Of a DNA stretch of 64,000 nt, positions 2,287-34,733 are shown piece by piece; the first letter of the stretch is position 1, and each line of letters begins with the position of its first letter. Origin of the DNA: an uncultured Acidobacteriota bacterium (GTDB taxonomy: Bacteria; Acidobacteriota; Thermoanaerobaculia; Multivoradales; UBA5704). The stretch is taken from assembly GCA_963700145.1 (NCBI GenBank), contig OY969474.1, positions 3,104,001 through 3,168,000 on the forward strand, written 5' to 3'. The translations under genes and the position numbers were made by a program. The notes below the pieces were generated by a model. The model saw nothing but the letters and a program-made list of their open reading frames with translations. It searched no databases and had not been told where the DNA came from.

Positions 2287-2709
2287 TCAGCCGGCGGTCG
2301 GCTCCTCCTCAGCCGATGCCGGGGCCGGAGCGGGGGTTGGAGTGGGTGTGGTGCCGGGGACCGGCGGTTGGGTCTCGTCCTTCTTCGGCGGCCGCCCGGA
2401 CAAGGCGTCGGGCTTGAGCCCGAGCTCGTGCAGGACGTTGGCGCGCTTGCCGTAGGTTCCCTTGAGGCGGAACACCATCCGGCCGTAGAGCTCGGCGGTG
2501 CGTTCTTCGGCGATCGCCCGTTGGCGGACCGCCTCGCGGAGCCGGCCTTCGTGGACGTCGGACTGCAGGAGCAGCGCATCGATCTGCTGGACCAGGGCCG
2601 CGAGCTCGGTGTGGTCGGTGGTGAGGAACTCGACCTCGCCGAGGCGGGACTTGAGCCCCTCCGCGAGGAGCCGCCAAGACTTGAGTCGTTCTCCTAGGGT
2701 GTCAGGCAC
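2287..2709 (-). CDS. uncharacterised helical-bundle protein with Pro/Thr-rich tail (about 140 aa)
   Basis: GTG at 2709 preceded by AAAGGAGA; the ORF-track extension to 2952 runs through the repeat array and is probably spurious. Confidence 0.8.
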   Translation of the reverse strand: MPDTLGERLKSWRLLAEGLKSRLGEVEFLTTDHTELAALVQQIDALLLQSDVHEGRLREAVRQRAIAEERTAELYGRMVFRLKGTYGKRANVLHELGLKPDALSGRPPKKDETQPPVPGTTPTPTPAPAPASAEEEPTAG

Positions 2710-2776
2710 GACGGGTTCTCCTTTCGTTCGTTGGGGATTGAGGGTGCGACGCTCCGCGACGCCCGCCGAGCGGCGC

Positions 2777-3028
2777 GAAATGGCCTGCGGGAGGCGCGGA
2801 ACTCCTTGCGGCGGCTTCGGAACCCATTCCCGGAGCGTGGGAATGGGTTGCGCGGGCCGGGGAATGGGTTGCGGAGCGCCGGGAACCCTTTCCGAGCGGC
2901 TCGGAACAGGTTCCGCGGCGCGCGCAACTAGTTCCCGGCGTCGCGCAATCAATTCCCGGCGCCGCGCAACAGGTTCCGAAGAGCGCGCAGGAGGTTCCGA
3001 GGTCCCGGGAGGACATTTCGGGGCTTCC
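2777..3028. repeat. degenerate tandem array, 12 units of 21 bp, palindromic core GSAA-N4-TTSC
   Basis: Cores start at 2777, 2798, 2819, 2840, 2861, 2882, 2903, 2924, 2945, 2966, 2987, 3008 (all 21 bp apart). Confidence 0.9.
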
Positions 3029-3036
3029 GGCGGGGG

Positions 3037-3252
3037 TTACGCCACCTTCTCCAGGGCCGCCGCGAGCTCCAGCTCCTCCGGAGCCAGGGCGCGGGCGGTC
3101 TTGGCGGTGGTGAGGGTGAGGGTGACGGCGCCGCCGGCGATCTGGACGCCGCTGATGCGCCATTCCGGCATCGCGCGGAGCAGCTCCTGGATGCGCTCCG
3201 CCTTCAGATGCTCGGTGACGGGGGTGGGGGGCGGTTTCTGGGGCTTGGCCAT
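3037..3252 (-). CDS. small protein resembling a shortened pterin-4a-carbinolamine dehydratase-like fold
   Basis: LKAERIQELLRAMPEW N-terminus and VTLTLTT...ELELAAALE C-terminus resemble PCD; the central part appears to be missing; AGGAG RBS. Confidence 0.5.
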   Translation of the reverse strand: MAKPQKPPPTPVTEHLKAERIQELLRAMPEWRISGVQIAGGAVTLTLTTAKTARALAPEELELAAALEKVA

Positions 3253-3253
3253 G

Positions 3254-4018
3254 TCAGGTCTCCTGTGAACCGGGACCGGGCGGGATGCCCGGGCCCGAAG
3301 TCGAGTCGGCGAGCTTGTGGACTTGGGTGAAGAGGACGCGCGCCCGTTCGCCGAGGGCGAGGGCTTCTTCGGTGCGGCCTTGTTCGCCGCGCAGCTCGGA
3401 GAGCAGGCGGCAGAAGGTGGCGTTGACGGCGAGGTCGGTCGCCAGATCGAGGCGGGCCTGGGCCTGCTGGAACGCCCAATCGGCGCCGGTCAGATCGCGC
3501 CGGTGGCGCCGCGCGTTGCCGACCAGGGCCCAGGCCTGGCTGGTCAGCTCGGCCAGTAGCGTCACCGGCACGCGCGCGACGTCGAGCTTTCCCACCATCG
3601 TGATGACCAGCCGTGCCAGGTGCTCGCCTTCGCGCGGATCCGCGGCAGTCACTTCGGCGCTCTTGTCGAGGAGGAGGATGGCGAGCGAGGCCGAGGGGCG
3701 CGCGACGGCGGCGCGCTGGTCTCGCCGCAGGCGCAGCAGCTTGTCCAGCTCGCGCTGCGCGGCTTCGCGCTCGCGGAAGATCCCCGGGACCTCCGCCGCG
3801 AGCTTCTTCTCGAGGGCGGTCCACATCGCGCTGTAGTCGAGAGGGCGAGAGCGGCGGGAGGGATGTTCGGGGGAGGCGGCGGGCGTCTGGGCGGCGAGGA
3901 CTTCGCGGAGGACGGCGCGGCAGGCGTCGCAGACGAGAGCGTGGGCGAGCTGCCGCCGCTCGGCCCGCGGGACCGGGGCGAGGACGAACAGGGCGTCGAA
4001 GTGACTCAGGTGGGCCAT
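3254..4018 (-). CDS. TPR-like helical protein with N-terminal HxxxCxxC (ZAS-like) motif
   Basis: HALVCDAC; TPR-like AWALVGNARR...A and EQGRTEEALAL segments. Confidence 0.75.
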   Translation of the reverse strand: MAHLSHFDALFVLAPVPRAERRQLAHALVCDACRAVLREVLAAQTPAASPEHPSRRSRPLDYSAMWTALEKKLAAEVPGIFREREAAQRELDKLLRLRRDQRAAVARPSASLAILLLDKSAEVTAADPREGEHLARLVITMVGKLDVARVPVTLLAELTSQAWALVGNARRHRRDLTGADWAFQQAQARLDLATDLAVNATFCRLLSELRGEQGRTEEALALGERARVLFTQVHKLADSTSGPGIPPGPGSQET

Positions 4019-4195
4019 TTCTTGGCGAGAGGCCGGTGGGCGGGGCCATCGAGCAAAGCTTGTGGGGAATGGCCCCAACTTTGTGTCCCCGCGGCCCGCA
4101 CGCCGGGTACTTTCACCGAGGTATTGTGCTCTGTCAACCCGTTGTGTCTAGAGAAACGGTAAGGGGCACCCGGAGCGGTGGTGTACACTTCCCCC

Positions 4196-4612
4196 ATGGA
4201 CCCGAGCTGGGAGCCGCAGCCGGAGGGCAAGAGGCTGGCCGAGGCCCTCCAGCGGAAGATTCGCGAGTCGGGGCTGGGCTACAGCGAGGTCGAGCGCCGG
4301 CTAGGGATGGGGAAGGACACCCTGCGCCACATCCTGAGCGGCAGGGTCGAACTCAAGGCCAAGCACGTCTACGGGGTTCTCAAGGCTTTGGGGGTCGCGC
4401 CCCCGGAGTTCTTCGCCGAGTTCTACGGGCTGCTGACGCCGGCCCAGGTCGCCAGCCAGCACCTCCACCCGCAGTTTCTGCCGAGCCTCTTCCGCGTCGA
4501 GAGGGGCGCGGTCTGGTTCATCGCCCGCAAGCTCAAGGAGAAGGGCATCCTCACCGACGAGGAAGTCGCGGCGTTCGTCGCCGAATACGAGCGGAGGGGG
4601 CCGACGCTCTAG
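4196..4612 (+). CDS. XRE-family helix-turn-helix regulator
   Basis: SGLGYSEVERRLGMGKDTLRHILSGRVELK HTH pattern; divergent from the TPR gene. Confidence 0.85.
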   Translation: MDPSWEPQPEGKRLAEALQRKIRESGLGYSEVERRLGMGKDTLRHILSGRVELKAKHVYGVLKALGVAPPEFFAEFYGLLTPAQVASQHLHPQFLPSLFRVERGAVWFIARKLKEKGILTDEEVAAFVAEYERRGPTL

Positions 4613-5901
4613 CCGGCTTCGGGGCGGTAGGACCGGCGGAGGCGGCCGGCGAGGTCGTGCAGCACCGCCAGCGCGTGCTCTCCCTGGCGGCCCATCTGAC
4701 CCAGTTCGAGCAGGGCGCCGAGCAGCTCCCGGGTGGCGCCCAGCGCCTGGTAAATCGGGATCGTTTCGCCGATCGTGCGCAGAACGCCGGCGCGGTCGCC
4801 CAGTCGCAGGTAAACCTCGGCCAAGTCGAGCGAGACGTCGGCCACTTCGACTCGCAGGTCGCGCTCGAGGAAGCCTTCGCGCACCTCCAGCAGCCGGGCG
4901 GCCGCCGCCGGGAGGAGACCGAGGTCGCGTTCGATCATGGCCCCTTGCCACTGCCACTTCAGAAGGTGGATCGTGTCTTCACAGACTTCGAAGGCGGCTT
5001 GCCCACGCATGAACAGAAGGTAGGCCGCGATCGGGCGCCCGAGGTCGATGAAGCAGCGCACGAGGTTGTTCGTGGCGGCGCGCGCAAGGTCGTCGGCATC
5101 GCACTGCTGCGCAAGGTCGAGGCCGGCCTGCAATGGCTCGAACGCGGACTCGGGATTGCCGGCGTAGATGTGCGCGATCCCTAGCTTCACCGCGGCGGCA
5201 CTCTCGCCGCGGGGATTGCCGGCGGACCGGTAGCAGCTCGCTGCCTCGGCCGCGAGAGCTGTCGCTGCCTCGAACTCGCGGTGGAATAGGCGAAGAGAGA
5301 AGAAGTGCTCACAGATCCAGCCGCGCACCTCCGGGTCCCCGCTCCCCGCCTCTTGATGAGCGAAGGCCGTGGCGAAGGCGCGCTCGGCTTCCGGCAACTC
5401 GCTCCGGAGCCGGTGTGCGTTGGCGAGGGCCGCCCAGGCGCGGGCCTGAGCATCGTGCGGCGCGGGGACGCTGCCCGCCTTGGTGGAGGCCGCTGCTTGC
5501 GCCGCCGCGACGGCGAGCCGGGCGTCTTGCCACATTCGCTCCGGGTCGCTGTGGCATGCCGCGAGGCTCCGCTCCGCGAGCAGGTCCGCAACTGCGCAGG
5601 CGGCAAAGCGGCCGGAGTTCCGGATCACAAGCTCCCGCTGCGCGAACGGCAGCGCGTCGATCTCGGTGAGCAGGCGCTCGGCGGTCCTCCGCGCGAGCTG
5701 GCGGTCTACCGCTGCCTGAGTTCTGGAGAAGGTTTCCGCGTAGGAGGTCTCGGGCGCCAGGAAGCCGCGCAGGGTCTCCTTGCAGCTCGTGCAGCCCGCC
5801 AGAAGATGGCGGACGAGGCGCTGGCCCTCCTCACCGGAGGCCTTCCCGCTCGCGAACCTTGCGGCGACCTCCGCAGGGACCTCGTGCTCGCTGTCGCTCA
5901 C
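4609..5901 (-). CDS. TPR-repeat protein with N-terminal HxxxxCxxC motif, 430 aa
   Basis: HLLAGCTSC; several TPR-like repeats (AWAALANAHR, LGIAHIYAGN, SLDLAEVYL). Confidence 0.85.
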   Translation of the reverse strand: MSDSEHEVPAEVAARFASGKASGEEGQRLVRHLLAGCTSCKETLRGFLAPETSYAETFSRTQAAVDRQLARRTAERLLTEIDALPFAQRELVIRNSGRFAACAVADLLAERSLAACHSDPERMWQDARLAVAAAQAAASTKAGSVPAPHDAQARAWAALANAHRLRSELPEAERAFATAFAHQEAGSGDPEVRGWICEHFFSLRLFHREFEAATALAAEAASCYRSAGNPRGESAAAVKLGIAHIYAGNPESAFEPLQAGLDLAQQCDADDLARAATNNLVRCFIDLGRPIAAYLLFMRGQAAFEVCEDTIHLLKWQWQGAMIERDLGLLPAAAARLLEVREGFLERDLRVEVADVSLDLAEVYLRLGDRAGVLRTIGETIPIYQALGATRELLGALLELGQMGRQGEHALAVLHDLAGRLRRSYRPEAG

Positions 5902-5985
5902 AGAACCCGCATTCTAACGGAAAGACGTAGACGCGGCGCCGCTCGACCGGCCGGCCGGCGCCGGCCGAGCGGGTATAACTCTGCA

Positions 5986-6231
5986 TCAGGGCTTGCAGGG
6001 CGCTCCGCTCGGATCGATGCACGACCCGTGATCCCCGGTCGGCAGCGGCCCGCCCCCGATCCCTCCCAAGCCGAACCACCCCGCCAGCCGTGCGAACCAG
6101 CCGGCGATCCGGCCGCCGTGGCTCACGGCCACCAGCGGCGTATCCATCACCCCGGCCTCCGCGGCCGGCACCGCCGTCAAGACACACGCCACCACCGCCA
6201 GCCCGAAGGCCGCTTTTCGCAAACCTTTCAT
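5986..6231 (-). CDS. small secreted peptide (81 aa) with C-terminal GSCIDPSGAPC motif
   Basis: GGAGG RBS; signal peptide MKGLRKAAFGLAVVACVLTAVPAAEA; amphipathic GWFARLAGWF helix. Confidence 0.75.
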   Translation of the reverse strand: MKGLRKAAFGLAVVACVLTAVPAAEAGVMDTPLVAVSHGGRIAGWFARLAGWFGLGGIGGGPLPTGDHGSCIDPSGAPCKP

Positions 6232-6371
6232 GGGATTCACCCTCCGGCGGGTCGGAGCCCGACCGGAAGCGGCGCGGGACGCCCGCATTCCGATAGTGCC
6301 ATACGGCCCCAAGACCGGGGCGCGCGAGCAGGGCCATCAGTGGGCAGTCGAAAGGTGATTAGACTACCGGC

Positions 6372-6521
6372 ATGGAGACCGCGGTCTCGGTCCCGCGGCA
6401 GGTCGGCCGCGGCGTCGTGAATGCTCTCGCCGAAGTCGGCAGCGAGCCGGACGTTTTCAGCCGCAGGGCCGCGCGAGGTGTTCTGGAACGCGTCGAGTGG
6501 GAGGAGGAATCGGGCTCATGA
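6372..6521 (+). pseudogene. internally deleted RHH (ChpI-like) antitoxin relic, 49 aa
   Basis: METAVSVP start and NALAEVGSEPDVFSRRAARGVLERVEW end match that family's termini without the central helices; TAGACT -10 just upstream; ATGA overlap with hicB. Confidence 0.55.
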
Positions 6522-6694
6522 CGGTCAGACACAAGGTCGCCCTGCGTAAGAGCGAAGAGGGGTACAGCGTCTCGGTGCCCGGCCTGCCGGGCTGCTGGTC
6601 GCAAGGCACGACCGAGTCCGAGGCGCTGGAGAACATCGAAGACGCCATCCGCGAGTACCTCGCGGTGGTGTCCGACCCCCGCCCCAACCGCTAG
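6518..6694 (+). CDS. hicB: HicB-family antitoxin (short; no hicA nearby)
   Basis: EEGYSVSVPGLPGCWSQGTTESEALENIEDAIREYL signature. Confidence 0.85.
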   Translation: MTVRHKVALRKSEEGYSVSVPGLPGCWSQGTTESEALENIEDAIREYLAVVSDPRPNR

Positions 6695-6756
6695 AATCCC
6701 CTGCCACCCGAGGAATGCCCCGCCGTCCGGAGCCGTTTGGGCGTGGGGAAACCGCC

Positions 6757-7857
6757 ATGCAACCCGCCATGCAACCGACCGACATCTACGGCAGCCTGCA
6801 GCAGCGCGTCATCGGCCAGGAGGAGATCCTGCGCTTCGTTTCGGTGGCGATCTTCAAGCACCTCCAGGGGGAGAAGTACGGCAACCTCCTGCTGATCGGC
6901 AACTCCGGCACCGGCAAGACGACGATCATGCGGGCCATCGAGGAGCTGTACCGGCAGCACGAGGAGCTGCGCGACTACCGGGTGCTGGTGATCATGAACG
7001 CCTCGACGATCGCCAACGAGGAGGGGATGGTGGACGTCGGGCGCCTCCTGACCCGGGTCGAGGAGCGGGCGCGGCAGATCCTGGGGGAGGACGCCACCCC
7101 GGAGGAGATCGCCCGCGCCATGGAGCGGGCCACCGTCTGCCTCGACGAGATCGACAAGGTCTCGGGGCAGATCGGCGGCAAGCCCTACGTCACCGGCATC
7201 AACATCCAGCAGGCCCTGCTCACCCTGATCGAGGGCGAGAGCGTGCTCTGGCCGATCACCGTCGTGCGCGACAAGCTCCCCGAGACGGCGCGCCTGACGG
7301 TCGACACCGGCCGCATGCTCTTCCTCTGCGCCGGCGCCTTCGAGACCCTCTACGACCAGGTCTTCCAGCGCGTCGTCTCGCCCAAAAGCGGCATCAAGCT
7401 GCCGACGACGACCGTCTACGAGAACGGCAAGATCCAGATCCGCGAGTACTTCACCCTGCGCGAGCACTTCAAGCAGGAGGACCTCTTCGCCTACGGCATG
7501 CAGCCGCAGTTCATGTCGCGCTTCGACAACGCGATCATCCTCGAGGACCTCACCGCCGGCACCCTGGCACGCATCTTCCGCGACCTCGAGGACGGCGTCT
7601 TTCGCTCTTCCCAGAACTTCTTCCGCAAGTACGGCATCGAGCTCGAGGTCACCGACCAGGCGGTGCAGAAGATCGCCGAGGAGGCCTCGCGCCACAGCCG
7701 GATCGGTGCGCGCGCCCTCAAGTCGGTCTACGGCCGGATCATCAAGCCCTTCGAGTTCGACCCCTTCTCCCGCCAGGAAGTCAAGGCCAACGGCGGCGGC
7801 CACCGCCTGCTCATCGACGAGCCGCTGGTGACGAGCGCCATGCGGCCGTCGGCATAA
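6757..7857 (+). CDS. divergent ClpX/HslU-like AAA+ ATPase lacking the N-terminal Zn domain
   Basis: VIGQE, Walker A GNSGTGKT, Walker B LDEIDK, QQALLTLIEG, LFLCAGAF, sensor-2 GARAL. Confidence 0.85.
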   Translation: MQPAMQPTDIYGSLQQRVIGQEEILRFVSVAIFKHLQGEKYGNLLLIGNSGTGKTTIMRAIEELYRQHEELRDYRVLVIMNASTIANEEGMVDVGRLLTRVEERARQILGEDATPEEIARAMERATVCLDEIDKVSGQIGGKPYVTGINIQQALLTLIEGESVLWPITVVRDKLPETARLTVDTGRMLFLCAGAFETLYDQVFQRVVSPKSGIKLPTTTVYENGKIQIREYFTLREHFKQEDLFAYGMQPQFMSRFDNAIILEDLTAGTLARIFRDLEDGVFRSSQNFFRKYGIELEVTDQAVQKIAEEASRHSRIGARALKSVYGRIIKPFEFDPFSRQEVKANGGGHRLLIDEPLVTSAMRPSA

Positions 7858-7867
7858 CATACGCCGC

Positions 7868-9922
7868 ATGCGCCGGACCGCCGCTCTCGCCGCCGTGCTG
7901 ACCTTCGCCTCTCTCGTCCCCCTCCACGCCCAACCGGCGCTGCCGGCCACGGCGGTCGAGCAGGCCGTCGCCCGCTTGACCGCGAAGCATGGCGAGGCGC
8001 AGGCGGCACGCATCCGCCGCGGCGTCGAGCAGGTGGCGCAGCGTTGGTGGGCCGAGGACGGCACGCCCGAGGAGTTCCTGGCCTTCGTCGAGGCCAGCTT
8101 CCTGGCCGACCCGGCGGAGCTCGACGTCACCGCCGCCCGCCTCGAGCGGGTGATGGAGCAGACGCTCGGGCACCTGCACGAGGTGCGGCGGGAGATCATG
8201 ACCCCGCTCGACCTCGACACCGGTCCGGTGCGGCGGGTGGACGAGCTGCTGTCGAACGTCGACTTGAGCGCGCACGTCGACGAGGACCTCTACCGCACGA
8301 AGGTCGCCTTCCTCGCCCTGCTCAACTTCCCGGTCCACACCCTCGAGGAGCGGCTGGCGCAGGGGCCCTCGTGGGACCGCGCGGCCTGGGCGCGGTCGCG
8401 CATGATGGACCGCTTCTCCGAGCGCCTGCCCGCGGCCGTCCTCCAGGAGTGGACGGCGGCCACGACGCGCGCCGACCAGTACATCGCCGACTACAACATC
8501 CGCCTCGACCGCCTGGTCACTCCCGAGGGGGAGCGCCTCTTCCAGGAAGGTCTGCGGCTGATCAGCCACTGGGGGCTGCGCGACGAGCTGCAGTCGCTCT
8601 ACGCCGACCCCTCTCCCGCCGCGCTCGCCAAGCAGCGGATGATCCTCGAGGTCATGAAGCGGATCGTGCGCCAGGAGATCCCGCGGACGGTGATCGACAA
8701 CGCCGACCGCCTCTGGGAGCCCTTCGCCAACACCGTCCGGCCGCTCGACCCGGCCGAGGCGGTCGACCCGGAGCGGCTGGCGCGCGAGCGTGAGCCGGAC
8801 ACCCGCTACGAGCGCCTGCTCGAGGTCTTCCGCGCCGCCACCAAGCAGGACCCCTACAGCCCGGCGACGCCGACCTTCGTCGAGCGCAGCTTCGAGCGCG
8901 GGCGCGAGATCCCGGAGAAAGAGGTCGAGGCCCTCCTCGTCTCCATCCTCGAGTCGCCGGAGGTACGCGACCTGGCGGCGCTGATCAAGCGGCGCCTCGG
9001 GCGCCCGCTCGAGCCCTTCGACATCTGGTACACCGGTTTCCGGCCGCGCGGCCGCTACAGCGAGGCCGAGCTGGACGCGGTGGTGCGCGAGCGCTACCCG
9101 ACGGTCGAGGCCTTCCAGGCCAAGCTCCCCGAGGTGCTGCGCGCCCTGGGGTTCACGCCGGAGAAGGCGGCATGGCTGGCCGAGCGCATCGTCGTCGACC
9201 CGGCGCGCGGCGCCGGCCACGCGATGGGCGCCGCGCGGCGCGAGGACAAGGCCCACCTGCGCACCCGCGTGGCCCAGGGGGGGATGGACTACAAGGGCTA
9301 CAACATCGCCATCCACGAGCTGGGGCACAACGTCGAACAGGTCTTCTCGCTCAACGCCATCGACCACTGGTGGCTCACGGGCGTCCCCAACAACGCCTTC
9401 ACCGAGGCGATGGCGTTCGTCTTCCAGCACCGCGACCTGGAGCTGCTGGGGCTCGGCTCCCAGGACGACGCGGCGCGGCGGGCGCAAGCCCTCGCTCTCC
9501 TCTGGAACGCCTACGAGATCGGCGGCGTGGCGATCGTCGACATGCGGGTCTGGAACTGGATGTACGCGCACCAGGAGGCGACGCCGGCCGAGCTGCGCGA
9601 GGCCGTGCTCGGGATCGCGCGCGAGGTCTGGAACCGCTGGTACGCGCCGCACTTCGGGGTGCGCGACTCCGAGGTCCTGGCGATCTACTCGCACATGATC
9701 ATCTACGGCCTCTACCTGCCCGACTACCCGCTCGGGCATCTCATCGCCTTCCAGGTCGCCGAGAAGCTGCACGGTGCGGACTTCGGCGCCGAGTTCGAGC
9801 GCGTGACCCGGCAGGGCCGGCTCACCCCCGACGCCTGGATGCGCGGCGCCGTCGGCGGACCCCTCTCCGCGCGCGCCCTCCTCACCGCGGCGCGCGAGGC
9901 CCTGGCGGCACCGCCGCAGTAG
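7868..9922 (+). CDS. secreted gluzincin metallopeptidase (M3/M2-like)
   Basis: Signal peptide; HELGH plus downstream FTEAMA Glu ligand. Confidence 0.75.
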   Translation: MRRTAALAAVLTFASLVPLHAQPALPATAVEQAVARLTAKHGEAQAARIRRGVEQVAQRWWAEDGTPEEFLAFVEASFLADPAELDVTAARLERVMEQTLGHLHEVRREIMTPLDLDTGPVRRVDELLSNVDLSAHVDEDLYRTKVAFLALLNFPVHTLEERLAQGPSWDRAAWARSRMMDRFSERLPAAVLQEWTAATTRADQYIADYNIRLDRLVTPEGERLFQEGLRLISHWGLRDELQSLYADPSPAALAKQRMILEVMKRIVRQEIPRTVIDNADRLWEPFANTVRPLDPAEAVDPERLAREREPDTRYERLLEVFRAATKQDPYSPATPTFVERSFERGREIPEKEVEALLVSILESPEVRDLAALIKRRLGRPLEPFDIWYTGFRPRGRYSEAELDAVVRERYPTVEAFQAKLPEVLRALGFTPEKAAWLAERIVVDPARGAGHAMGAARREDKAHLRTRVAQGGMDYKGYNIAIHELGHNVEQVFSLNAIDHWWLTGVPNNAFTEAMAFVFQHRDLELLGLGSQDDAARRAQALALLWNAYEIGGVAIVDMRVWNWMYAHQEATPAELREAVLGIAREVWNRWYAPHFGVRDSEVLAIYSHMIIYGLYLPDYPLGHLIAFQVAEKLHGADFGAEFERVTRQGRLTPDAWMRGAVGGPLSARALLTAAREALAAPPQ

Positions 9923-9974
9923 GCAACGAACACCTCCTCCCAACGCTTTTCCCTTCCGGCGCGTTTAGAGCGGT

Positions 9975-10514
9975 GTGACCCAGCCGCTCTGCGCGACCTT
10001 GGACCGACCGCTCGAAGACACCGCCCGCGACCGGCTGGCGGCCCTCTTCGACCTGCACCACGAGCGCCTCTTCCGGCTGGCGCGGCGCCTCGCCGGCGAG
10101 CGCGAGGAGGCGCTCGACCTGGTGCAGGAGACCTTCGTACGCGCCGCGCGGCGGCCGGGCACGGTGCCGGCGCCGGAGAGCGGCGGCGAGGCCTGGCTGG
10201 TGCGGACGCTCGTAAACCTCTGCCGCGACCGCCACCGCCGCCTCGCCGTCCGCCGGCGCCGGCGCCACGAGGTGGAGCCGCCGGAGGGAACGCCCGACCC
10301 CGCGGGCGCCGCGGTGGCGCGCGCCACGGTGCGCCGCGCCCTGGCCGCCCTCCCCGCCCGCCGCCGGGCGGTGGTGGTGCTGCACGAGCTCGAGGAGGTG
10401 CCGGTGGCGGAGGTGGCGCGGCTCCTGGGCATCGCACAGGTAACGGTGCGCTGGCACCTGGCGGCGGCGCGCAAGCAGCTCGCGGTCCTGCTGGGTGAAG
10501 GAGAAAAGTCATGA
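9975..10514 (+). CDS. ECF sigma-70 factor
   Basis: DLVQETF region 2; LPARRRAVVVLHELEE...EVARLLGIAQVTVRWHL region 4. Confidence 0.9.
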   Translation: MTQPLCATLDRPLEDTARDRLAALFDLHHERLFRLARRLAGEREEALDLVQETFVRAARRPGTVPAPESGGEAWLVRTLVNLCRDRHRRLAVRRRRRHEVEPPEGTPDPAGAAVARATVRRALAALPARRRAVVVLHELEEVPVAEVARLLGIAQVTVRWHLAAARKQLAVLLGEGEKS

Positions 10515-11047: not shown

Positions 11048-11059
11048 AGGAGAACGACC

Positions 11060-11806: not shown

Positions 11807-11899
11807 GGCGCGAAGGCTTTTCGCGCCGGGCTCCGGTCACCGGATATGCTCCGCGGGCGCGCGCACGCCCCACATCCCCCCGCGCGCCCGAGGAGCCCC

Positions 11900-15286: not shown

Positions 15287-15291
15287 GCTCG

Positions 15292-15887: not shown

Positions 15888-15889
15888 AT

Positions 15890-23060: not shown

Positions 23061-23127
23061 GCCATCCCTCCTTTTGAGTTCACGGCAGAACGGGCGGCGC
23101 CGCCCGTCGATGTGTTACAGGCGCAGG

Positions 23128-26100
23128 TCATCCTGCTTCGCCGAGCAGGACGAACGGCGCCCAGTAGTAAGGATGCGCTCGTTCCTCTCGTCCGAGAACG
23201 CTAAGCTTGGCGGCGCGCAACGCCTCGCCCACACCGGCGCCCTGCTGCAGGCGACGATAGAACTCGATCATGAGATCGGCGGTCGAAGCGTCTTCCACCG
23301 ACCAGAGGCTTACCACGAGACTGGGGGTGCCTGCGTAGAGGAAGGCCCTCGCGAAGCCGATCAGCCCCTCTCCGGCCACCGCTCTGCCCAAACCACTTTC
23401 ACAAGCCGACAGCACGATCAGCTCCGCGTCGAGCTCGAGATTGAAGATCTCATAGACTTGCAACAGCCCATCCTCGGCAGAATTTTCGGAGCGTGCCAAA
23501 ACCAGGCCGGACAGCTCCGGTCGCACGTCGCTCAAGAACGCGTGCGTCGCAAAGTGAATGCGGCGAGCGGTCGAAAGCGACCGGTCCTGTTTCACGTGGT
23601 CTTCGGTCGCTTCCGGGCCGAGGAAAAGATCGACCTCGCTGGATGCGAAGAGCTGTGCGATGGCCTCGACCTCTCGGCGGCTCTCCGGCAAATCGGCGAG
23701 ATACGTTGCCGCGCCCAGCATTGGAACCTTCGCCGTCCGGCTAGCGACCGGATCGGCAAAAGCGACCAGACTCTTCGCCGCAGTCGACTCTTGGTTGGCG
23801 GCGTGCCCTGCCTCTGCCTGGAGACTGAGCAGAACGCTGGCCGAGGGGGCGTAAGAGACCATATGGGTCCGCAGGAGATACGGCGGGGCCGCAGTGCCTT
23901 CTATCCGGCTTGGCTCCGTCGAGACGAGAGCCTCGAAGGGAACCAGGTGGAGAACACCATCAGCTACAATCACGAGTTTGGGGCGCTTATTCAGAATGCC
24001 GGCGGCAGGTGCAAGGAGGAGTTGATACAATCGATGCGCCGACAAAAGGTACGGACCGAACAGTCGGCGCTCGGGAGACACCAGAGTCTGGCGTAGTCGC
24101 TCCACTTCCTCGGTGATCTCCCGAGCCGGGGGAAGCCGGTAAGTCTCGAATTCTCCCTTTGTCAGCACGAAAAGATAAGAGGCGTCGTGCCCAAGGGCGT
24201 ACTCCAGCAGAGCGACATCCGACTCCAGCGATGCTTGGACTTGTGCGAGCGTCGCGATGGGAGGATAGCGGACCTCCGCGTAACGCGGGTGCTTGAGACG
24301 GATGTCAGACTCCATTTCCTTCAGCTCGTCGAGTGCAGATTTCAGCTCGCGCCTGAGCTCGGCGGTCTCATCCGTCTCGGCATTCAGCCTCGATAGCAGG
24401 TCGACGAGGCGCGACTGCGTCGAAGAGATCTTCGCCGCGAGCTGCCGTTCGCGTTCCTTGAGCTCGGGCGCGACACCTCGTCGGACATCGATTCTGCCCT
24501 CAGCCAGAAGCTCCAAGAGGCTGCGCGCTCGCGCTCTCTCGCTGGTATCGAAGGCCTGCTCCGCAAAACCTCGCGCGGACGGCTTGCTCCCAAGCCGCAT
24601 CAGCAGATCGATGTAGGCGTCGTAGTACTCCCGGCGCGCAGCGAAGTAGGTAGCCCTTAAGTCACGGCTCAGGACCTGTTGCCGGCCCGACTCAATGATG
24701 GCGAGCGCTTCTTCCAGCCGCGGACGTGCGTCTTCCAGGCGGCCGCCTTCGCGGTCGAGCCCCGCCCAGTGGAGAAGGATGCTTGCCTGGAGGATTGAGT
24801 TCTCGGCGCGCCGAGCTAGCTCAAGTGACTTCTCGAGATTCTCCACGGGACCGTCGAGTCCGAGCCTGTGCTGGACCATCCCGAGGTCGAGAAGTGCGCT
24901 GGCTTCCTCAACACGGTTTCCCGCTTCGCGCCGCAGCGCAACGCACTCCTGTAGGCTGGCAAGTGCGGCATTTAGATCACCAAGGGCGAGCTGTGCGATG
25001 CCCGTACGGTGCAACGCCATCCCTTCCACCCGCCGGTTACCGATCTCCCGGCTGATTGACAAGGCCTGCTGGTGGTGATTCAGGGCCGCCTGTGGCTGAT
25101 CAGAAAGCGATTCGACCCAGCCGAGACTGGTAAGCGCCCGCGCTTCAAAGTCTCGATTACCGCCTGCCCTATAGAGCTCTAAGACCTTCCGATACTCGTC
25201 TGCAGCGCGCTCGAGCTCTCCGAGATCGCGGTGTAGGCCGGCCAAGGCCTCCCTAACGTTACCCAAGCTCGTTGAATCGCCGACCGCCTCCCACTGAGCG
25301 ATAGCCTCACCATAGAGGCGAAGGGCTTGCTCGAACTCTCCGCGCGTACGATGGGCAAGAGCGAGGTTACCCGTTATGTACGCTTCGCTCTCAAGACTTC
25401 CAGCTGCCCTGCTAAGCGTCAGAGCTCGATACAAGCGATCCAGTGCAAGTCGCGTTTCACCGAGGTACAGCAGATCCAGGACACCCAGGCTGTTAAGCGT
25501 GTAGGCCTCGCCTTCGAGCTCGCCGGCGACGTGCCAGAGCGGTAGGGCCTCCTCGAACATCTCGAGAGCGCGTCGCGGCTCCCCGCGCTGATTGTGAAAA
25601 AGGCCCAGGTTGTGGAGCGTTGTCGCCGCCTCGGCGGTGTTGGACGTCTCACGCCAGATCGCCAGTGCTCGATGGTAATGGTCGAGCGTCTTGTCGGGCT
25701 CACCCAGGCGGGAGTAGGCGAGCCCGAGATTGTTCAAGGCCTCCCCTTCACCCTGCCGGTGGCCGGCGGCCTTCGCCAGCGCCTCGGCTCGCTCGAATCG
25801 AGCGATCGCCTCGTGCTCGTTTCCCTGCGAGTGCAGCACGAGACCTGCTTCGTTCAGGCATTCCGTCTGACCTACTTTGTCGCCCAGCTGCTCCCACAAG
25901 GCTAAGCTCTCGTCGAACCTGGAGATGGCTTGCTGCTTTGACTGCGAAGTACTTAGCGACTGGAGGTGATAGGCCTCGCTGAACAGTTGCTCGGCTCTAA
26001 CGCGAATCTCGTCGGTGGGCAGCGCAGGACGGCGTGCTTCGAGATTCACGGCGTAGCTACGGTTGTCACCCTCGTCTTTCCTCTCCACGATCAGCCGGAA

Positions 26101-26457
26101 TCGTCCGCTTCTCTGGGCTACCAGCGTCAGCAGCTCGCGCTGTTTGGAGCCGCCGGGACCATCTGCAGTGGCGAGGAGGTCACCGTCGGGCGCAAGCAGG
26201 GTGAGCGCCAAGTCCATGGCGCGCGGTTCCGCACGGATACGCAGGTAGGAGCCGGCCGGCGTCTCTACGCGGTAGGCGTGCTTTTCCCCCGGTGCGAGCT
26301 CCCGCTGGACCGGCTCTCCCAGTCGCAACTCAGGCTCGACAGCGGCGGCCGGGGAGCCCGGCGGCGCACCCGAATGGGTGGCGCAGGCGGCGGCGAGGGC
26401 GAGGAGGAGCGCCGAGAGGGGTTTGGAGACGCGGCCTTGGGCGCGTGAGACCTTCAC
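23128..26457 (-). CDS. lipoprotein with PPC-like domain, TPR repeats and C-terminal CHAT (caspase-like) protease
   Basis: Lipobox LAAAC after GTG at 26457; many TPRs; IHFATHA (His), LSACESG (Cys), SLWSV, HPYYWAPF. Confidence 0.92.
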   Translation of the reverse strand: MKVSRAQGRVSKPLSALLLALAAACATHSGAPPGSPAAAVEPELRLGEPVQRELAPGEKHAYRVETPAGSYLRIRAEPRAMDLALTLLAPDGDLLATADGPGGSKQRELLTLVAQRSGRFRLIVERKDEGDNRSYAVNLEARRPALPTDEIRVRAEQLFSEAYHLQSLSTSQSKQQAISRFDESLALWEQLGDKVGQTECLNEAGLVLHSQGNEHEAIARFERAEALAKAAGHRQGEGEALNNLGLAYSRLGEPDKTLDHYHRALAIWRETSNTAEAATTLHNLGLFHNQRGEPRRALEMFEEALPLWHVAGELEGEAYTLNSLGVLDLLYLGETRLALDRLYRALTLSRAAGSLESEAYITGNLALAHRTRGEFEQALRLYGEAIAQWEAVGDSTSLGNVREALAGLHRDLGELERAADEYRKVLELYRAGGNRDFEARALTSLGWVESLSDQPQAALNHHQQALSISREIGNRRVEGMALHRTGIAQLALGDLNAALASLQECVALRREAGNRVEEASALLDLGMVQHRLGLDGPVENLEKSLELARRAENSILQASILLHWAGLDREGGRLEDARPRLEEALAIIESGRQQVLSRDLRATYFAARREYYDAYIDLLMRLGSKPSARGFAEQAFDTSERARARSLLELLAEGRIDVRRGVAPELKERERQLAAKISSTQSRLVDLLSRLNAETDETAELRRELKSALDELKEMESDIRLKHPRYAEVRYPPIATLAQVQASLESDVALLEYALGHDASYLFVLTKGEFETYRLPPAREITEEVERLRQTLVSPERRLFGPYLLSAHRLYQLLLAPAAGILNKRPKLVIVADGVLHLVPFEALVSTEPSRIEGTAAPPYLLRTHMVSYAPSASVLLSLQAEAGHAANQESTAAKSLVAFADPVASRTAKVPMLGAATYLADLPESRREVEAIAQLFASSEVDLFLGPEATEDHVKQDRSLSTARRIHFATHAFLSDVRPELSGLVLARSENSAEDGLLQVYEIFNLELDAELIVLSACESGLGRAVAGEGLIGFARAFLYAGTPSLVVSLWSVEDASTADLMIEFYRRLQQGAGVGEALRAAKLSVLGREERAHPYYWAPFVLLGEAG

Positions 26458-26507
26458 AGAAGTTTCCCGCGAATCTGTAAGGCAGTCTATCGCATAGACT
26501 TCTGTCA

Positions 26508-27113
26508 ATGCGCCCAGACGACGCGGCGGTGGTGACCGGGTTCTTGAGCGGCGACCCGGCGGCGGTGGCGACCGTCGACGGGTGGATCGCGCGGGCCGCC
26601 TGGCCGTTCCAACGGCGGCTCGGCCACCGCTGGGACGACGTCCTCCAGGACGTGCGCGTCGAGGTCACCCGGCTCTTCCAGCGCCAGGAGTTCCGCGGCG
26701 GCTCGAGCCTCAAGACCTACCTCTGGCGGGTGGTCAACCACACCTGCCTGGACCAGGTCCGCGGCCAGGGGCGCTGGCAGTGGGCCGACCTCGACGTGCT
26801 CGACCGGGGGGAGGAGGAGCTGCCGGCCGCCCAGCGGCGCCCCTCGCTCCAGTCGCAGGAGGAGTCGCGCGACCTGCTGCTGCGGGTCTGGGGGCGGATG
26901 CCCGTCGACTGCCGCGAGCTCTGGGGGATGATCGCCGCCGGCCTCTCCTACCGCGAGATGAGCGGGCGCAAGGGGGTGGCGGAGGGGACGCTGCGGGTGC
27001 GGGTGCTGCGCTGCCGGGAGAAGGCGGCGGCCCTGCGCGAGGAGCTGCGCGCCTGGCGTAACACAAGCGACAGAACTTCGCCTAAGACTGCTGGAAAGAG
27101 CGAACCCGAATGA
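26508..27113 (+). CDS. ECF sigma-70 factor
   Basis: DDVLQDV, FRGGSSLKTYLWRV, GLSYREMS...EGTLRVRVLRC. Confidence 0.88.
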   Translation: MRPDDAAVVTGFLSGDPAAVATVDGWIARAAWPFQRRLGHRWDDVLQDVRVEVTRLFQRQEFRGGSSLKTYLWRVVNHTCLDQVRGQGRWQWADLDVLDRGEEELPAAQRRPSLQSQEESRDLLLRVWGRMPVDCRELWGMIAAGLSYREMSGRKGVAEGTLRVRVLRCREKAAALREELRAWRNTSDRTSPKTAGKSEPE

Positions 27114-28144
27114 CCTGCGAACACGCCACCGAGCTGCTCCCCTGGCTCCTCAACGGCACCCTGGAGCCGGCAGAACGGCAGGAGGTGTTGGAGCACGTCC
27201 GCAAGTGCGAGGCCTGCCGGCGCGCCCTCGACGAGGCGCGGCTGGCCCTCGCCGCGGCCGGCGCCCACCTGCCGGCGGAGGCCCTGGTGGCGGCCGCCTT
27301 CGGCGAGCCGATGCCGCCGGGGATCGATGCCGCTCTGGTCGAGGAGCACCTCGCCGCCTGCCCGCAGTGCGCGGCGGACCTCGAGCTGGCGCGGACGAGC
27401 CACGCCCTGGCCGACGAGGAGGTCCTCCTCTTCCCGCGCACCGCGCCCCCGGCCGCGGTCCCGGCGCGGCAGGCCGCCCCCGCCGGCCGCTGGCGGGCCG
27501 CGGCGCTGGCCGCCGGGCTCGCGGCCGTGCTCTTCGCCGGCGGCTGGCTCACCAACCGCCAGGCGCTCGACCGGATGGAGGAGCGGCTGGCCGGCCGCAC
27601 CGCGCCGCCGGCCCCGGCCGCGCCGGGAGGCGGCCCGGAGGAAGACCGCACCGCCGGGCTGGCCGAAGAGAACCGTCGCCTGCGCGACGAGGCCGCCGCC
27701 CGCGCGGCGGGGGAGCAGGCCGCGCGCGAAGAGGCCGATGGCCTCCGCCAGGAGCTCGCCCGGCGCGAGGCGCCTGCGGGCGGCGGCGCCGCCCCGCAGC
27801 TCAACCCGGTGATCGCCGACCTCTTCCCGCCCGGCGGGGACGTGGTGCGCGGCGGCGGCGAGACCGGCACCACGATCGAGCTGCCGGCGGGCGCCGGCGG
27901 CGCGACGCTCATCCTCAACACCCGCGGGCCCTCCGCCTTCCGCGAGCACGCCGTCGAGCTGCGCGACGCCGCCGGCAAGCCGGTGTGGAGCGCGCGCGGC
28001 CTCGTGACACAGCCGGACGAGGGACCTTTCCACCTCCACCTGCCCCGCCAGGTGCTCGCCCCCGGCACTTACACGCTCGAGGTCTTCGGCCTCGACGGCG
28101 CGCGGCGCGAGAAGGTGCAGACCTACAGGTTCACGATCCGCTAG
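27110..28144 (+). CDS. anti-sigma factor with two zf-HC2 motifs, TM, coiled coil and beta-rich C-terminus
   Basis: HVRKCEAC and HLAACPQC; ATGA-coupled to the sigma gene. Confidence 0.88.
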   Translation: MTCEHATELLPWLLNGTLEPAERQEVLEHVRKCEACRRALDEARLALAAAGAHLPAEALVAAAFGEPMPPGIDAALVEEHLAACPQCAADLELARTSHALADEEVLLFPRTAPPAAVPARQAAPAGRWRAAALAAGLAAVLFAGGWLTNRQALDRMEERLAGRTAPPAPAAPGGGPEEDRTAGLAEENRRLRDEAAARAAGEQAAREEADGLRQELARREAPAGGGAAPQLNPVIADLFPPGGDVVRGGGETGTTIELPAGAGGATLILNTRGPSAFREHAVELRDAAGKPVWSARGLVTQPDEGPFHLHLPRQVLAPGTYTLEVFGLDGARREKVQTYRFTIR

Positions 28145-28167
28145 CGCCCGGCCTACGTGCCGGGCTT

Positions 28168-32233
<4,066 letters not shown>

Positions 32234-32291
32234 GACGCGAGCCTTCCACCGGGGCGGCTGAGATCCTTCGGAGCTCAGCCGCCCTGTTTTT

Positions 32292-33248
32292 TTGGGGATT
32301 ATGCCTGACCAGGGAGCCAGCCGGTCTAAGCTCTCGCGGATGGACAGGCAGGCAGCCGGAGCTGTCTTTCGCCGGTGGGTTGGGCCGGTAGTGAGCTTCC
32401 TTCTGGGATGGGCCTACAATCTGACCGGCCCCAAGAATCCGCTCATTGCCCAAGTTCTTCTTGCCATTGCGGCCCTCTGGAGTTTCGCGGCTTTCGTCAC
32501 GCTTGAAAGCGTCAGGCGGTTGTCGTGGAGGGCCAAAGGTGTCGTTTGGTCCGCCGCGGCTCTAGTTTTGTGCTTCCTGTGGTGGGGTGCTGCTTACCAC
32601 ATCTTCGTCCCACCGCCCGAGATCATTCCAGAACAGCTCGCGGAGGCAGCAGCGGAAGCCGCTCTAAGGAAGCAGGCTGCCGCCCAACCCTTATTTGCGT
32701 TTGTCCTACGCTCTTGCGCTCATGACAGAACTGTTGACTGCCTCGAAATTTGGAACCGCGGAGAGCGGATCAGGTCTTTCACTGTACAGCAGTATGCGTT
32801 TGTCAGGGTTACCGGTAGAGACTATCCAGCGTCTCGGGTTATCCCCACCCTCTATTACCAAGAGCAGCGACCGACGGGAAAGCTTGCGGGCAAATTGACG
32901 ACTCTGGTCGGGGCGCCGCCCAGCGGCGGTTCCCTCCGAACCCTAGACCTTCTCGATTCCCAGATGACGAAGAAGTACGGGGAGTGGAATAGCGTGGTAG
33001 ATATTCGACTCTTTATCGAGATGAAGTACATCGATACCGCCGGAAGTAGCCGTAGCTCCGGCTATGAGATTCTCCTGCGAAATCGCTTCGACCCTATCCG
33101 GATTCTTGACTACGATGTCGGCCGATACGGACATTTCACGCAAGAAGAGGAGCGAATAGAACAGTTATCGGTAGATAGCATCGAGAAGAATTGGGACCGC
33201 TACAGGTCCTCCGACGAAGTATTCCCGAGCCTGTTTCGAGGAGAGTAG
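32292..33248 (+). CDS. hypothetical membrane protein (N-terminal TMs), atypical base composition
   Basis: 318-aa ORF with about 3 hydrophobic segments; visibly more A/T than the flanks; start uncertain. Confidence 0.65.
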   Translation: MGIMPDQGASRSKLSRMDRQAAGAVFRRWVGPVVSFLLGWAYNLTGPKNPLIAQVLLAIAALWSFAAFVTLESVRRLSWRAKGVVWSAAALVLCFLWWGAAYHIFVPPPEIIPEQLAEAAAEAALRKQAAAQPLFAFVLRSCAHDRTVDCLEIWNRGERIRSFTVQQYAFVRVTGRDYPASRVIPTLYYQEQRPTGKLAGKLTTLVGAPPSGGSLRTLDLLDSQMTKKYGEWNSVVDIRLFIEMKYIDTAGSSRSSGYEILLRNRFDPIRILDYDVGRYGHFTQEEERIEQLSVDSIEKNWDRYRSSDEVFPSLFRGE

Positions 33249-33256
33249 CGAGAGTG

Positions 33257-33430
33257 CTAATCCTCCACCCCGAGGGCCCTGCGAATGATCTCGCTCTTGG
33301 ACGTGCGCTCGCGCTCTGCCTTCTGCGCCAACGCTTCGACTTCATCGGGATGCATAGGTAGGCGACTTCGCGCACCAGTCCGCGACTCGTGGCGGGCCGG
33401 CTTGGGCGGCTTCTTGGCCTTGGACGCCAT
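33257..33430 (-). pseudogene. degenerate CopG/RHH-type small DNA-binding protein
   Basis: 57-aa ORF ending HPDEVEALAQKAERERTSKSEIIRRALGVED; the expected beta strand (GLVREVAYL) lies in another frame. Confidence 0.55.
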
Positions 33431-33657
33431 GCCGGGAACATGGCCATAGGTGTGGCGCTACTGTAGACACACTGCCGCGCTAGCTCCTTCGCACGGCCCT
33501 TGCCGTTCCCGCGCGACTGGAGTGCGCTCTTCGGCACGGCGAGAATCCCTCGCATCGCCGTGTCGAATTCCAAGGGCTCGGCGAGGTGCATCGGCCCTCC
33601 CTCGCCTTAGGCTGAGGATAGGTGCCTAAGACCTTGGAAGCGGAGACTGGGCACCGG

Positions 33658-34095
33658 TCACCCCGCCGCGAGAGGATGTCGCCAGCGCAGGTGCGGGAAG
33701 CGGCCGAAATCGGAGTCGGTGGTGACCAAGGTGCAGCCGTGCTCGATGGCGATGGCGGCGTGCTGCGCGTCGGCGACGAGCTTCCCGGTCGCCTTGGCGG
33801 CGCGGCAGAGCTCGCCGACGAGCTCCCAGTGCTTTGGTCCAGGACCCAGTAGAAAAGCTGTCGGCCGGCTCGTCAGCTCGTCTGCGAAGCCGAGCGCCTC
33901 CTCCAGCGTCGACGGGCGGCGAAAGATGCGCGGGTTGGTCACGATGCGGACGAGCCCGACGAGGGTGAGAACCGATAGCGCGAAGGGCTCCGGGCCCGTT
34001 GCCAGGTTCGCGACCCAGTCGGCGAAGCGCGGGTGCTCCGCGTGGCTGTCCGCGCGGTGCGCGTAGACGAGGACGTTGACGTCTGGAAGCAGCAC
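33658..34095 (-). CDS. vapC: VapC-family PIN toxin
   Basis: LLPDVNVLVYA...DAQHAAIAIEHG...TTDSDF. Confidence 0.92.
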   Translation of the reverse strand: MLLPDVNVLVYAHRADSHAEHPRFADWVANLATGPEPFALSVLTLVGLVRIVTNPRIFRRPSTLEEALGFADELTSRPTAFLLGPGPKHWELVGELCRAAKATGKLVADAQHAAIAIEHGCTLVTTDSDFGRFPHLRWRHPLAAG

Positions 34096-34096
34096 G

Positions 34097-34363
34097 TCAG
34101 GTCTCCTCGTCGGCGGATCCGTAGATGGCCTCGTCCTCCGCGACGAGAAGCTCCGAAGTCCGGTCGAGGTCGATGCCGGGACGGGGACCGCCGCCGCCGA
34201 CGGTGATGAGCCGGAACGGAGGCGGCTCGTCTGGGCGGGGCCGCTTGGCGAGATACTCCTCGAGCGCGCGCGACACCAAACCGCTCAAGGACTTCCCCTC
34301 GCGCCGAGCGCGGCTCCGCGCCGCCTCTCCAAGCCGGTCGTCGACGAAGATCGTCGTCCTCAT
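34097..34363 (-). CDS. vapB: VapB-like RHH antitoxin
   Basis: MRTTIFVDD...A.REGKSLS...PGIDLD; immediately upstream of vapC. Confidence 0.85.
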   Translation of the reverse strand: MRTTIFVDDRLGEAARSRARREGKSLSGLVSRALEEYLAKRPRPDEPPPFRLITVGGGGPRPGIDLDRTSELLVAEDEAIYGSADEET

Positions 34364-34405
34364 GTGGCGTAGAGTACCACGGGTTCATACCGTAATACTA
34401 CGACC

Positions 34406-34474
34406 TTAATCCCTCTCGACTAAAGTGTTCCAGGTCTTGAGCTTATCGGCGAGTGAGTTGGGGTTCGTGGGCAT
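34406..34474 (-). pseudogene. truncated paralogue of the 2287-2709 helical protein (MPTNPNSLADKLKTWNTLVERD*)
   Basis: GAAGGAGAGG RBS; SLADKLKTWNTLVE aligns with TLGERLKSWRLLAE; after a 2-nt shift it continues GLRS (compare GLKS). Confidence 0.7.
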
Positions 34475-34510
34475 GATCCTCTCCTTCGAACGGGGGTTTG
34501 CGGGGCGCCG

Positions 34511-34733
34511 GAGATAGATCTCGAGGACCCGGAGATAGATCTCGGCGGTCCGGAGATAGATCTCGAGCTATGGAAGATTCATCTCGGGCGCTCCGGGATA
34601 GATCTCAGAGGGCCGAAGACTTATCTTTCGGAGCTCCGGGATAGATCTCCGTGGCTCTGGGATAGATCTCGGGAGGCCCGGGATAGATCTCCGGGACTCC
34701 GGGATAAATCTCCGGGGCTCCGGGATAGATCTC
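34511..34733. repeat. degenerate tandem array, 11 units of 21 bp (one 22-bp step), palindromic core GAGAT-NN-ATCTC
   Basis: Cores at 34511, 34532, 34553, 34574, 34595, 34616, 34638, 34659, 34680, 34701, 34722. Confidence 0.92.

Follow-up and report, generated by a model that had tools for sequence, protein, structure and literature searches.

Among the closest described counterparts of the system reported here are the centromere arrays of plasmids, which are served by small centromere-binding proteins, as in the parC/ParR systems of R1 and pSK41 and in parH/ParG. We analyzed a window of 64,000 nucleotides (nt) from an uncultured Acidobacteriota bacterium (contig OY969474.1, positions 3,104,001 to 3,168,000). 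It holds two tandem arrays of 21-bp units, one beside an intact gene (locus A) and one beside a gene remnant (locus B) of a single unnamed protein family. As at plasmid centromeres, tandem, helically phased short repeats adjoin a gene for a small protein, the array lies in or near the promoter region, and paralogous units have different repeat sequences. Unlike plasmid centromeres, these arrays are chromosomal, number about 100 per genome, mostly lack a gene, and can lie downstream of the gene. The family protein also differs from the plasmid binders, in that its AlphaFold2 (AF2) model is all helical, with no ribbon-helix-helix signature and no match to a winged helix-turn-helix (HTH). We found no partition NTPase (ParA, ParM, or TubZ) among the 14 proteins around locus A; the other loci were checked by clustering only.

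Theta-plasmid iterons and their Rep initiators, with titrating arrays, share with our loci a phasing of ~20 to 22 bp, arrays beside the gene, and extra "decoy" arrays elsewhere. They differ in that we saw no winged-helix Rep domain and no sign of an origin and in that the cores are mostly palindromic rather than directional. By analogy, then, the architecture resembles that of plasmid centromere and iteron arrays, but it is chromosomal and many-typed and comes with no partition or replication enzyme. Repetitive extragenic palindromic (REP) sequences and bacterial interspersed mosaic elements (BIMEs), with their REP-associated tyrosine transposases (RAYTs) (compare PMC3733652 and PMC12306157), are likewise palindromic intergenic repeats of several sequence types, biased to gene ends and convergent regions, with a "master" gene beside its own repeat type. 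In contrast to REPs and BIMEs, ours occur almost only as long phased arrays rather than singly or in doublets, with units of 20 to 21 bp and spacers of 7 to 9 bp. Unlike RAYTs, the family protein has no Y1 (IS200/IS605-type) transposase domain by Pfam; no genome search for RAYT genes was made. Clustered regularly interspaced short palindromic repeats (CRISPRs) have repeats of 23 to 50 bp and unique spacers of similar length, unlike the 21-bp units and semi-conserved 7- to 9-bp spacers seen here. Full-text literature searching met no description of such arrays or of the family protein, nor did passages of the REP survey PMC12306157 contain one.

We found that the pairing of array and gene recurs throughout the source genome, a single contig of 5.46 Mb with 71.5% G+C. 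We delimited the family by iterating a hidden Markov model (HMM) on array-masked open reading frames (ORFs), which converged at 16 full-length paralogs; iteration on unmasked stop-to-stop ORFs drifted onto translated arrays (182 "hits") and was discarded. With genes taken from a codon-usage gene caller and an array counted when it lay within 150 bp upstream, all 16 family genes had an array, compared with 33 of 4215 other genes (Fisher p = 7e-33). Displayed in a 21-bp register, each of the 16 upstream regions is its own array followed by a GGAG-type ribosome-binding site, which stands 6 to 10 nt 5' of the start codon in every paralog. Eleven of the family genes, those outside a five-copy element described below, lie in unrelated neighborhoods; the constant unit is therefore the array plus the gene. 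In 8 of the 16 cassettes, a gene with the Pterin_4a (PCD/DCoH) fold lies on the other side of the array. The first-pass annotation had described the two loci in the window as sharing one layout on the minus strand and had proposed a recurring, undescribed cassette, to be checked by an enrichment of 21-bp arrays next to homologs of the gene. Both loci are as it described them, the enrichment is that given above, and the cassette recurs genome-wide (107 arrays, 16 paralogs) and lineage-wide.

To describe the arrays themselves, we used Tandem Repeats Finder (TRF), whose genome-wide output had 286 period-21 rows, 82 period-42 rows, and 36 period-20 rows. Merging the rows gave 146 arrays of at least 75 bp, which make up 0.51% of the genome and 16 of which have a 20-bp period. 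We kept 107 arrays of 20- or 21-bp period after dropping those within well-scoring genes and those of weak periodicity. Their cores are highly diverse and most are two-fold symmetric; examples are CCGGAAGCTTCCGG, GAGATCTATCTC, CGGATGTATCCG, GTATCAGCGCCTGATAC, GGGAAAGCTATCCC, and CCGTTACCGTAACGG. Diverse cores also stand behind the 16 paralogs, which agrees with the earlier claim that the architecture is conserved and the core sequence is not. When we pooled 46 arrays with clear palindromes, the step from core to core was 21 bp in 364 of ~436 cases, 20 bp in 39, and another length in ~33. Because 21 bp is two helical turns of B-DNA, cores spaced in this way would all lie on one face of the helix. 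The annotation of the arrays as palindromic with a 21-bp period was right about the period and only partly right about the palindromes, since many cores of the array at locus A are imperfect. Long core motifs were almost confined to arrays (for example, 45 of 49, 18 of 18, and 12 of 12 matches fell inside them), so that the array, and not the single unit, is the entity. Arrays are enriched between convergent genes (31 of 107, versus 232 of the 1893 intergenic regions that are 50 bp or longer), and in tandem gene contexts they often start less than 40 bp past the upstream stop codon. The recurrent gene clusters that adjoin them are the family genes, the DCoH-like genes, an Xre-type HTH group, and multicopy families of ~400, 345, 269, and 106 amino acids (aa), which we take to be insertion sequence (IS) genes by size and copy number only.

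A period of 21 bp is also seven codons, and the units could in principle encode heptad repeats, as an N-terminal extension of the protein or as a separate repeat protein. Consistently with this, the frame stays open for at least 100 codons upstream of the start in ~10 of the 16 loci (read by eye, not computed). However, a unit that is free of stops in one frame is automatically free of stops in every copy. Among the 146 merged arrays, 16 have a period of 20 bp. The N termini line up at a conserved start codon, with a strong ribosome-binding site before it, the codon-usage caller left most arrays uncalled, and palindromic symmetry is a property of DNA. Taken together, the 20-bp periods, the conserved starts and ribosome-binding sites, the uncalled arrays, and the palindromes make a coding role extremely unlikely.

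For the family protein, searches found nothing significant in Pfam or NCBIfam (E at least 0.038, below the cutoff), and PHROGs and PADLOC gave no hit at a threshold of E<=0.01. Searched against 1.8 billion proteins, a profile built from the 16 paralogs matched 1312 representative clusters at E<=0.001, 578 of them at E<=1e-10. The close relatives are all labeled "hypothetical," one of them as from a Thermoanaerobaculia bacterium, and matches in a protein atlas were to unnamed Acidobacteriota clusters only. The AF2 model (mean predicted local distance difference test score, 79.8) is a helical hairpin made of helices only, predicted at residues 5 to 20 and 27 to 86 (the latter a 60-residue helix), with a further short helix and a disordered basic, proline-rich tail. 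R58, L82, G87, L93, and P100 are invariant in the 16 paralogs, and the equivalents of R58 and R64 on the long helix are at least 90% conserved in 50 sequences. Foldseek of the model against the PDB returned nothing at E<=0.001, and a wide VIA-align search gave a best Z of 6.5, with all matches being generic helical hairpins.

We favor the explanation, at a probability of roughly 0.45, that the arrays are double-stranded docking tracks for the cassette protein or proteins, in a system that turns over fast and is partly selfish. According to this model, the track would be noncoding DNA, a row of ~10 to 12 short sites, most of them two-fold symmetric, with a spacing of exactly two helical turns. 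The small coiled-coil protein, alone or with the DCoH-like protein, would assemble on it, probably binding as dimers and then polymerizing along the track, and would probably recognize the shape and phasing of the track, or a small number of bases, and not the entire core. Palindromic sites suit a dimer, and we count the conserved arginines and the basic tail in favor of docking. The array next to the gene may be a "home" site for nucleation or self-control. The cassette would duplicate within the genome, concerted evolution would make its arrays diverge fast, and arrays would be copied, taking little or no flank with them, into new intergenic places. The complex might serve as a roadblock or insulator, anchor the nucleoid, or propagate itself.

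We looked for the gene and the arrays in 40 genomes of relatives. The gene is present in 22 of 24 genomes of one Thermoanaerobaculia taxonomic family, with 4 to 48 matches each, and in none of the 16 genomes that represent the order's other families. We analyzed 27 of the 28 loci outside the source genome (L042 was left out), with periodicity defined as an autocorrelation of at least 0.45 within 350 bp of the gene. All eight same-genus loci, from four other genomes, had strong 21/42-bp periodicity upstream. At the 19 loci from other genera, periodicity was upstream in 4, downstream in 2 (L028 and L048), and on neither side in 13, two of them borderline. In a 400-kb sample of G010, a genome of another genus with 48 gene matches, we found 13 merged arrays and 6 family genes, and an array lay 35 to 110 bp downstream of 3 of these genes; one locus there has the order DCoH-like gene, family gene, array. 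The placement of arrays downstream of the gene in other genera fits a cis-acting site better than a leader. No such array was found in 300 kb of G022, a genome of the same family with 0 gene matches, in which a single period-21 row of 5.8 copies looked unlike the others and was set aside. Nor was one found in 400 kb of G031, from another family, whose one period-21 row was left uninspected. The density in the source genome predicts ~6 arrays in the G022 sample and ~8 in the G031 sample. Contigs of four soil DNA runs gave short multicopy pieces only, with no usable joints.

Several observations weigh against the docking of the family protein on these tracks. About 80 to 90 arrays have no trace of a family gene. 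Among 15 array types with at least two members, grouped by sharing of recurrent 10-mers, eight have one family gene, none has two, and seven have none in the source genome. The pattern of one family gene per array type, which would favor docking, is by itself a trend that is not significant (permutation p = 0.074). In other genera, an array lies within 350 bp on either side of the gene at only 6 of 19 loci, and in the G010 sample, three of the six family genes have no array within 8 kb. The co-occurrence of gene and array comes from four genomes that are kin and from partial samples. No known DNA-binding fold was recognized in the family protein by Pfam, NCBIfam, or structure searches. Finally, the paralogs at genome positions 3106, 3387, and 2032 are 74 to 76% identical, with mostly conservative differences, yet their cores are unrelated.

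This last point bears on the proposal in the first-pass annotation that each paralogue (or a partner) coats its own array, taken here as sequence-specific reading. The paralogs at 3889 and 3204, with an identity of only 60%, have one core type in common. The identity of the paralogs thus does not track the core type, which argues against the helical protein as the sole determinant of specificity, and strict recognition of one sequence by one paralog is not supported by these comparisons. Among orthologs, core type was unchanged in all four cases at 91 to 98% identity and, at 74 to 83% identity, unchanged in two and changed in one. Since close orthologs share a core type, array and gene are inherited together.

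In the window, locus A holds the intact cassette. On the minus strand, the array is followed by a ribosome-binding site and then by the 140-aa gene. The features of the locus and its surroundings are as follows.

2771..3028, no strand, array A: ~12 units of 21 bp with cores G[GC]AA-N4-TT[CG]C; autocorrelation of 0.61 at period 21
2718..2724, minus strand, ribosome-binding site AAAGGAG within a C/A-rich leader (2710-2770)
2287..2709, minus strand, intact family gene of 140 aa with a GTG start at 2709, 1 of the 16 paralogs in the genome; predicted short N-terminal helix, ~60-residue helix, and basic/proline-rich disordered tail
3037..3252, minus strand, 71-aa ORF, apparently an internally deleted relative of the DCoH/PCD-like (Pterin_4a) gene that retains the N- and C-terminal parts only
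3254..4018, minus strand, gene for a 254-aa protein of no recognized family, first of the same-strand run and part of the five-copy element
4123..4150, minus strand, sigma-70-like promoter match upstream of the 254-aa gene (9 of 12 positions, consensus scan only)
4181..4612, plus strand, divergent HTH_3 (Xre-type) regulator of the five-copy element, by domain match
73..2186, minus strand, three genes for proteins of 137, 315, and 247 aa of no recognized family, downstream of the family gene and common to the five-copy element

TRF reported array A as two separate fragments. Its first four units are GGAA-N4-TTGC and later units are GCAA-N4-TTCC. Units 7, 8, and 10 (GCAA-N4-TTCC) are the reverse complement of units 1 to 4 (GGAA-N4-TTGC), an internal mirror, and the array taken whole is a loose dyad.

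The element around locus A is at least 7 kb long and is present in five copies in the genome (positions 3106, 3889, 3204, 3387, and 2032) at DNA identities of 77 to 92%. Its order is a TPR protein (430 aa), the divergent HTH_3 regulator, the 254-aa protein, the 71-aa ORF, the array, the family gene, and proteins of 137, 315, 247, and 204 aa. The cassette sits in the middle of the element and not at its edge, and homology between the copies is interrupted across the stretch between genes where the array and leader lie. Our best reading of this arrangement is that locus A is a working cassette within the five-copy element. The other proteins of the element belong to no recognizable family (PADLOC, PHROGs, and NCBIfam on the operon gave HTH and TPR domains only), and a PDB sequence search with three of the neighboring proteins gave nothing meaningful. 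The 315-aa neighbor (829-1776, minus strand) was modeled with a predicted template modeling score of 0.81, and its best structural match was an alpha/alpha-toroid lyase at Z 7.0, a match too weak for any function to be read from it. This protein has many invariant Cys, His, Asp, and Glu residues across 13 homologs.

The second gene of the cassette is related to DCoH/PCD. DCoH associates with the helical dimerization domain of HNF1, and an adjacent catalytic histidine pair is typical of true dehydratases. Four full-length DCoH-like paralogs matched PF01329 at 37 to 61 bits (cutoff, 26). The 71-aa ORF at locus A had no match at E<0.01, and its twin ORF scored 17 bits; by tblastn, the homology of the 71-aa ORF to the full-length DCoH-like genes covers their N- and C-terminal parts. 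Inspected by eye, the DCoH-like alignment shows no pair of adjacent histidines. One bona fide PCD gene stands elsewhere in the genome, and every other Pterin_4a match there belongs to an array cassette. As with DCoH and HNF1, a small helical protein is encoded beside a protein of the Pterin_4a fold, one in which the catalytic histidine pair is not obvious. In contrast, the eukaryotic pair is not known to be tied to repeat arrays, and any pairing here is putative. Co-folding of residues 1 to 105 of the family protein with the DCoH-like protein gave a score of 0.00, which weighs neither way.

The arrays could also act as RNA, as a structured 5' leader, put forward in the first-pass annotation too, or as an intercistronic element that governs translation or stability of the helical gene. 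The sigma-70-like match is the sole one in the scanned region 1700-4300; in the five-copy element, the only promoter-like match thus lies two genes upstream, and if it is real, array A is probably transcribed within an operon. A strong ribosome-binding site and an unstructured C/A-rich leader also follow the array. However, the palindromes leave loops of only 0 to 2 nt. When we compared symmetric core positions across distinct unit variants, 2092 pairs were unchanged, 716 had changed on one side, and 101 had changed on both, against 113 double changes expected under independence. Of the double changes, 59 of 101 are complementary, and the compensatory-change test for base pairing does not discriminate, because double changes are not in excess and a dimeric binder also predicts symmetric changes. 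Two of the downstream arrays in G010 are preceded by a GC-rich hairpin and a T run, which we read as an intrinsic terminator. Many arrays have no family gene, and Rfam had no family in window positions 1-40000. The short loops, the lack of an excess of double changes, the arrays downstream of terminator-like hairpins, and the convergent placement make a role as RNA very unlikely, and the leader proposal is disfavored.

At locus B, also on the minus strand, the array is followed by a frameshifted 22-codon stub and then by vapBC.

34502..34735, no strand, array B: TRF period 21, 11.0 copies, score 165; core GAGATCTATC(T/C)C
34406..34474, minus strand, family-gene remnant of 22 codons; one-base insertion plus stop, with homology to the intact paralog lost near codon 26
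33658..34363, minus strand, vapBC toxin-antitoxin pair (PIN domain, 51 bits; VapB_antitoxin, 23.9 bits) in place of the rest of the family gene
32301..34810, no strand, strain-variable island that includes locus B, 2.5 kb between conserved flanks; two relatives have other array types there

The ribosome-binding site is at 34487-34478, the ATG is at 34474, and the 22-codon ORF ends at 34406. The stub had been assigned to the family from its sequence, and it scored 16.7 bits against the HMM of the 16 paralogs (E 3e-7 when searched as the only target). Over 27 aa, it has 78% identity with the paralog at genome position 3204321, which has the same array core and aligns with locus B at the DNA level up to the one-base insertion. 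From this alignment, locus B is a true remnant, a dead cassette. At the same island edge, two arrays of types other than that of array B are found in G003, and vestiges alongside others in G004, so that the spot beside the gene at 34841 carries different array types in three strains. The island is flanked by a TonB-like gene and a YdeI/OmdA-domain gene (compared loci L058 and L059).

Gene-less arrays also differ between strains. A 26-unit array was missing at the orthologous site in all three relatives. A 21-unit array was also present in the closest strain only, at a different copy number, and so was a third array. In a more distant strain, both flanks of this third array are kept, and they stand 214 bp apart rather than 1079 bp. 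Thus, of three gene-less arrays tested, one is private to the source genome, two are common to the closest strain only, and none is in more distant strains. In four of four cases, the array abuts a conserved flank on one side and strain-specific DNA on the other. We conclude that the system is lineage specific and turns over quickly between strains.

This turnover would also be expected of selfish or unstable satellite-like repeats that spread and decay in permissive intergenic DNA and render the host no service, with the helical gene as an "autonomous" partner, as RAYT is to REP or REPIN (REP doublets), or merely co-mobilized. The strain differences, the changing array types beside the gene at 34841, the junctions with strain-specific DNA, and the convergent-gene enrichment all fit this account. 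Arrays are also often beside IS-like gene clusters, and nine arrays, locus B among them, bear short cassette-flank remnants in addition to the 16 intact cassettes (the leader, the first 7 to 32 codons, or a C-terminal piece). Same-type gene-less arrays have no common flanking sequence. However, no target duplications or defined ends were seen at these arrays, scans of the family protein and of 10 neighbors revealed no domain of a recombinase, transposase, or nuclease, and the units, unlike REPs, are almost never single outside arrays. This explanation overlaps the docking-track explanation without excluding it, and we consider it possible if somewhat unlikely. The earlier suggestion of a link to mobility or recombination is partly favored, in that gene-less arrays come and go and sit at the edges of strain-specific DNA.

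Alternatively, the arrays could be fragile or recombination-prone landing sites and the family gene a small cassette that inserts beside them, so that the linkage would arise from insertion preference and not from binding. The positions at island edges agree with this, as does the clustering of remnant breakpoints, three near codons 22 to 27 across two array types and two at codon 7. There is a GGATGTATCC-type cassette remnant (genome position 4827551; region 4827734-4828134), and GGAAGCTTCC-type units start right behind the remnant's start codon, with the array types abutting, as insertion beside an array might leave them. Against such insertion, array, leader, and gene are inherited as one block in orthologs, each intact gene has its own array type, the array is midway between conserved flanks in the five-copy element, and no integrase was identified among the proteins scanned. 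We judge it improbable, although both this explanation and selfish spread fit the turnover data and overlap the docking of protein on phased tracks.

A bolder version of the docking proposal is a "satellite DNA with its own protein," in which the coiled-coil protein and its DCoH-like partner would build, maintain, or spread phased tracks chromosome-wide; coated with protein, the tracks would then act as barriers at the edges of variable DNA, either marking such edges or creating them. We regard this version as doubtful. If it is true, the system would be chromatin-like or boundary-forming, and no counterpart of it has been described in bacteria. If the protein coats the tracks, this would be a new chromosomal use of the centromere/iteron principle and could explain how variable DNA is insulated, silenced, or reshuffled in these soil Acidobacteriota. 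Arrays that propagated themselves would be a new class of bacterial repeat element. In any case, ~0.5% of this genome consists of rigidly phased repeat tracks that annotation does not explain, at a density comparable to that in one related sampled genome, and the tracks are tied to an unnamed protein family of more than 1300 sequence clusters. Either way, the pairing offers a testable handle of one small protein and one 250-bp DNA.

Other features of the region were noted. At 23128-26457 (minus strand), the window encodes a 1109-aa protein with TPR and CHAT domains within a stretch of lower G+C (~62%). A 58-aa HicB-like antitoxin fragment at 6518-6694 (plus strand) is followed at 6757-7857 (plus strand) by a 366-aa AAA ATPase with a ClpB D2-small domain. 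To the left of the window, at genome positions 3097489-3098845 (L001:1489-2845), adjacent genes encode a DprA/SLOG-like protein and a weakly phosphoribosyltransferase-like protein, which could be a nucleotide-based conflict pair. Elsewhere in the source genome, at 1080507-1088171, there are repeats of 78- to 79-bp period that combine a conserved ~37-bp unit with inserts that vary; these are probably CRISPR arrays.

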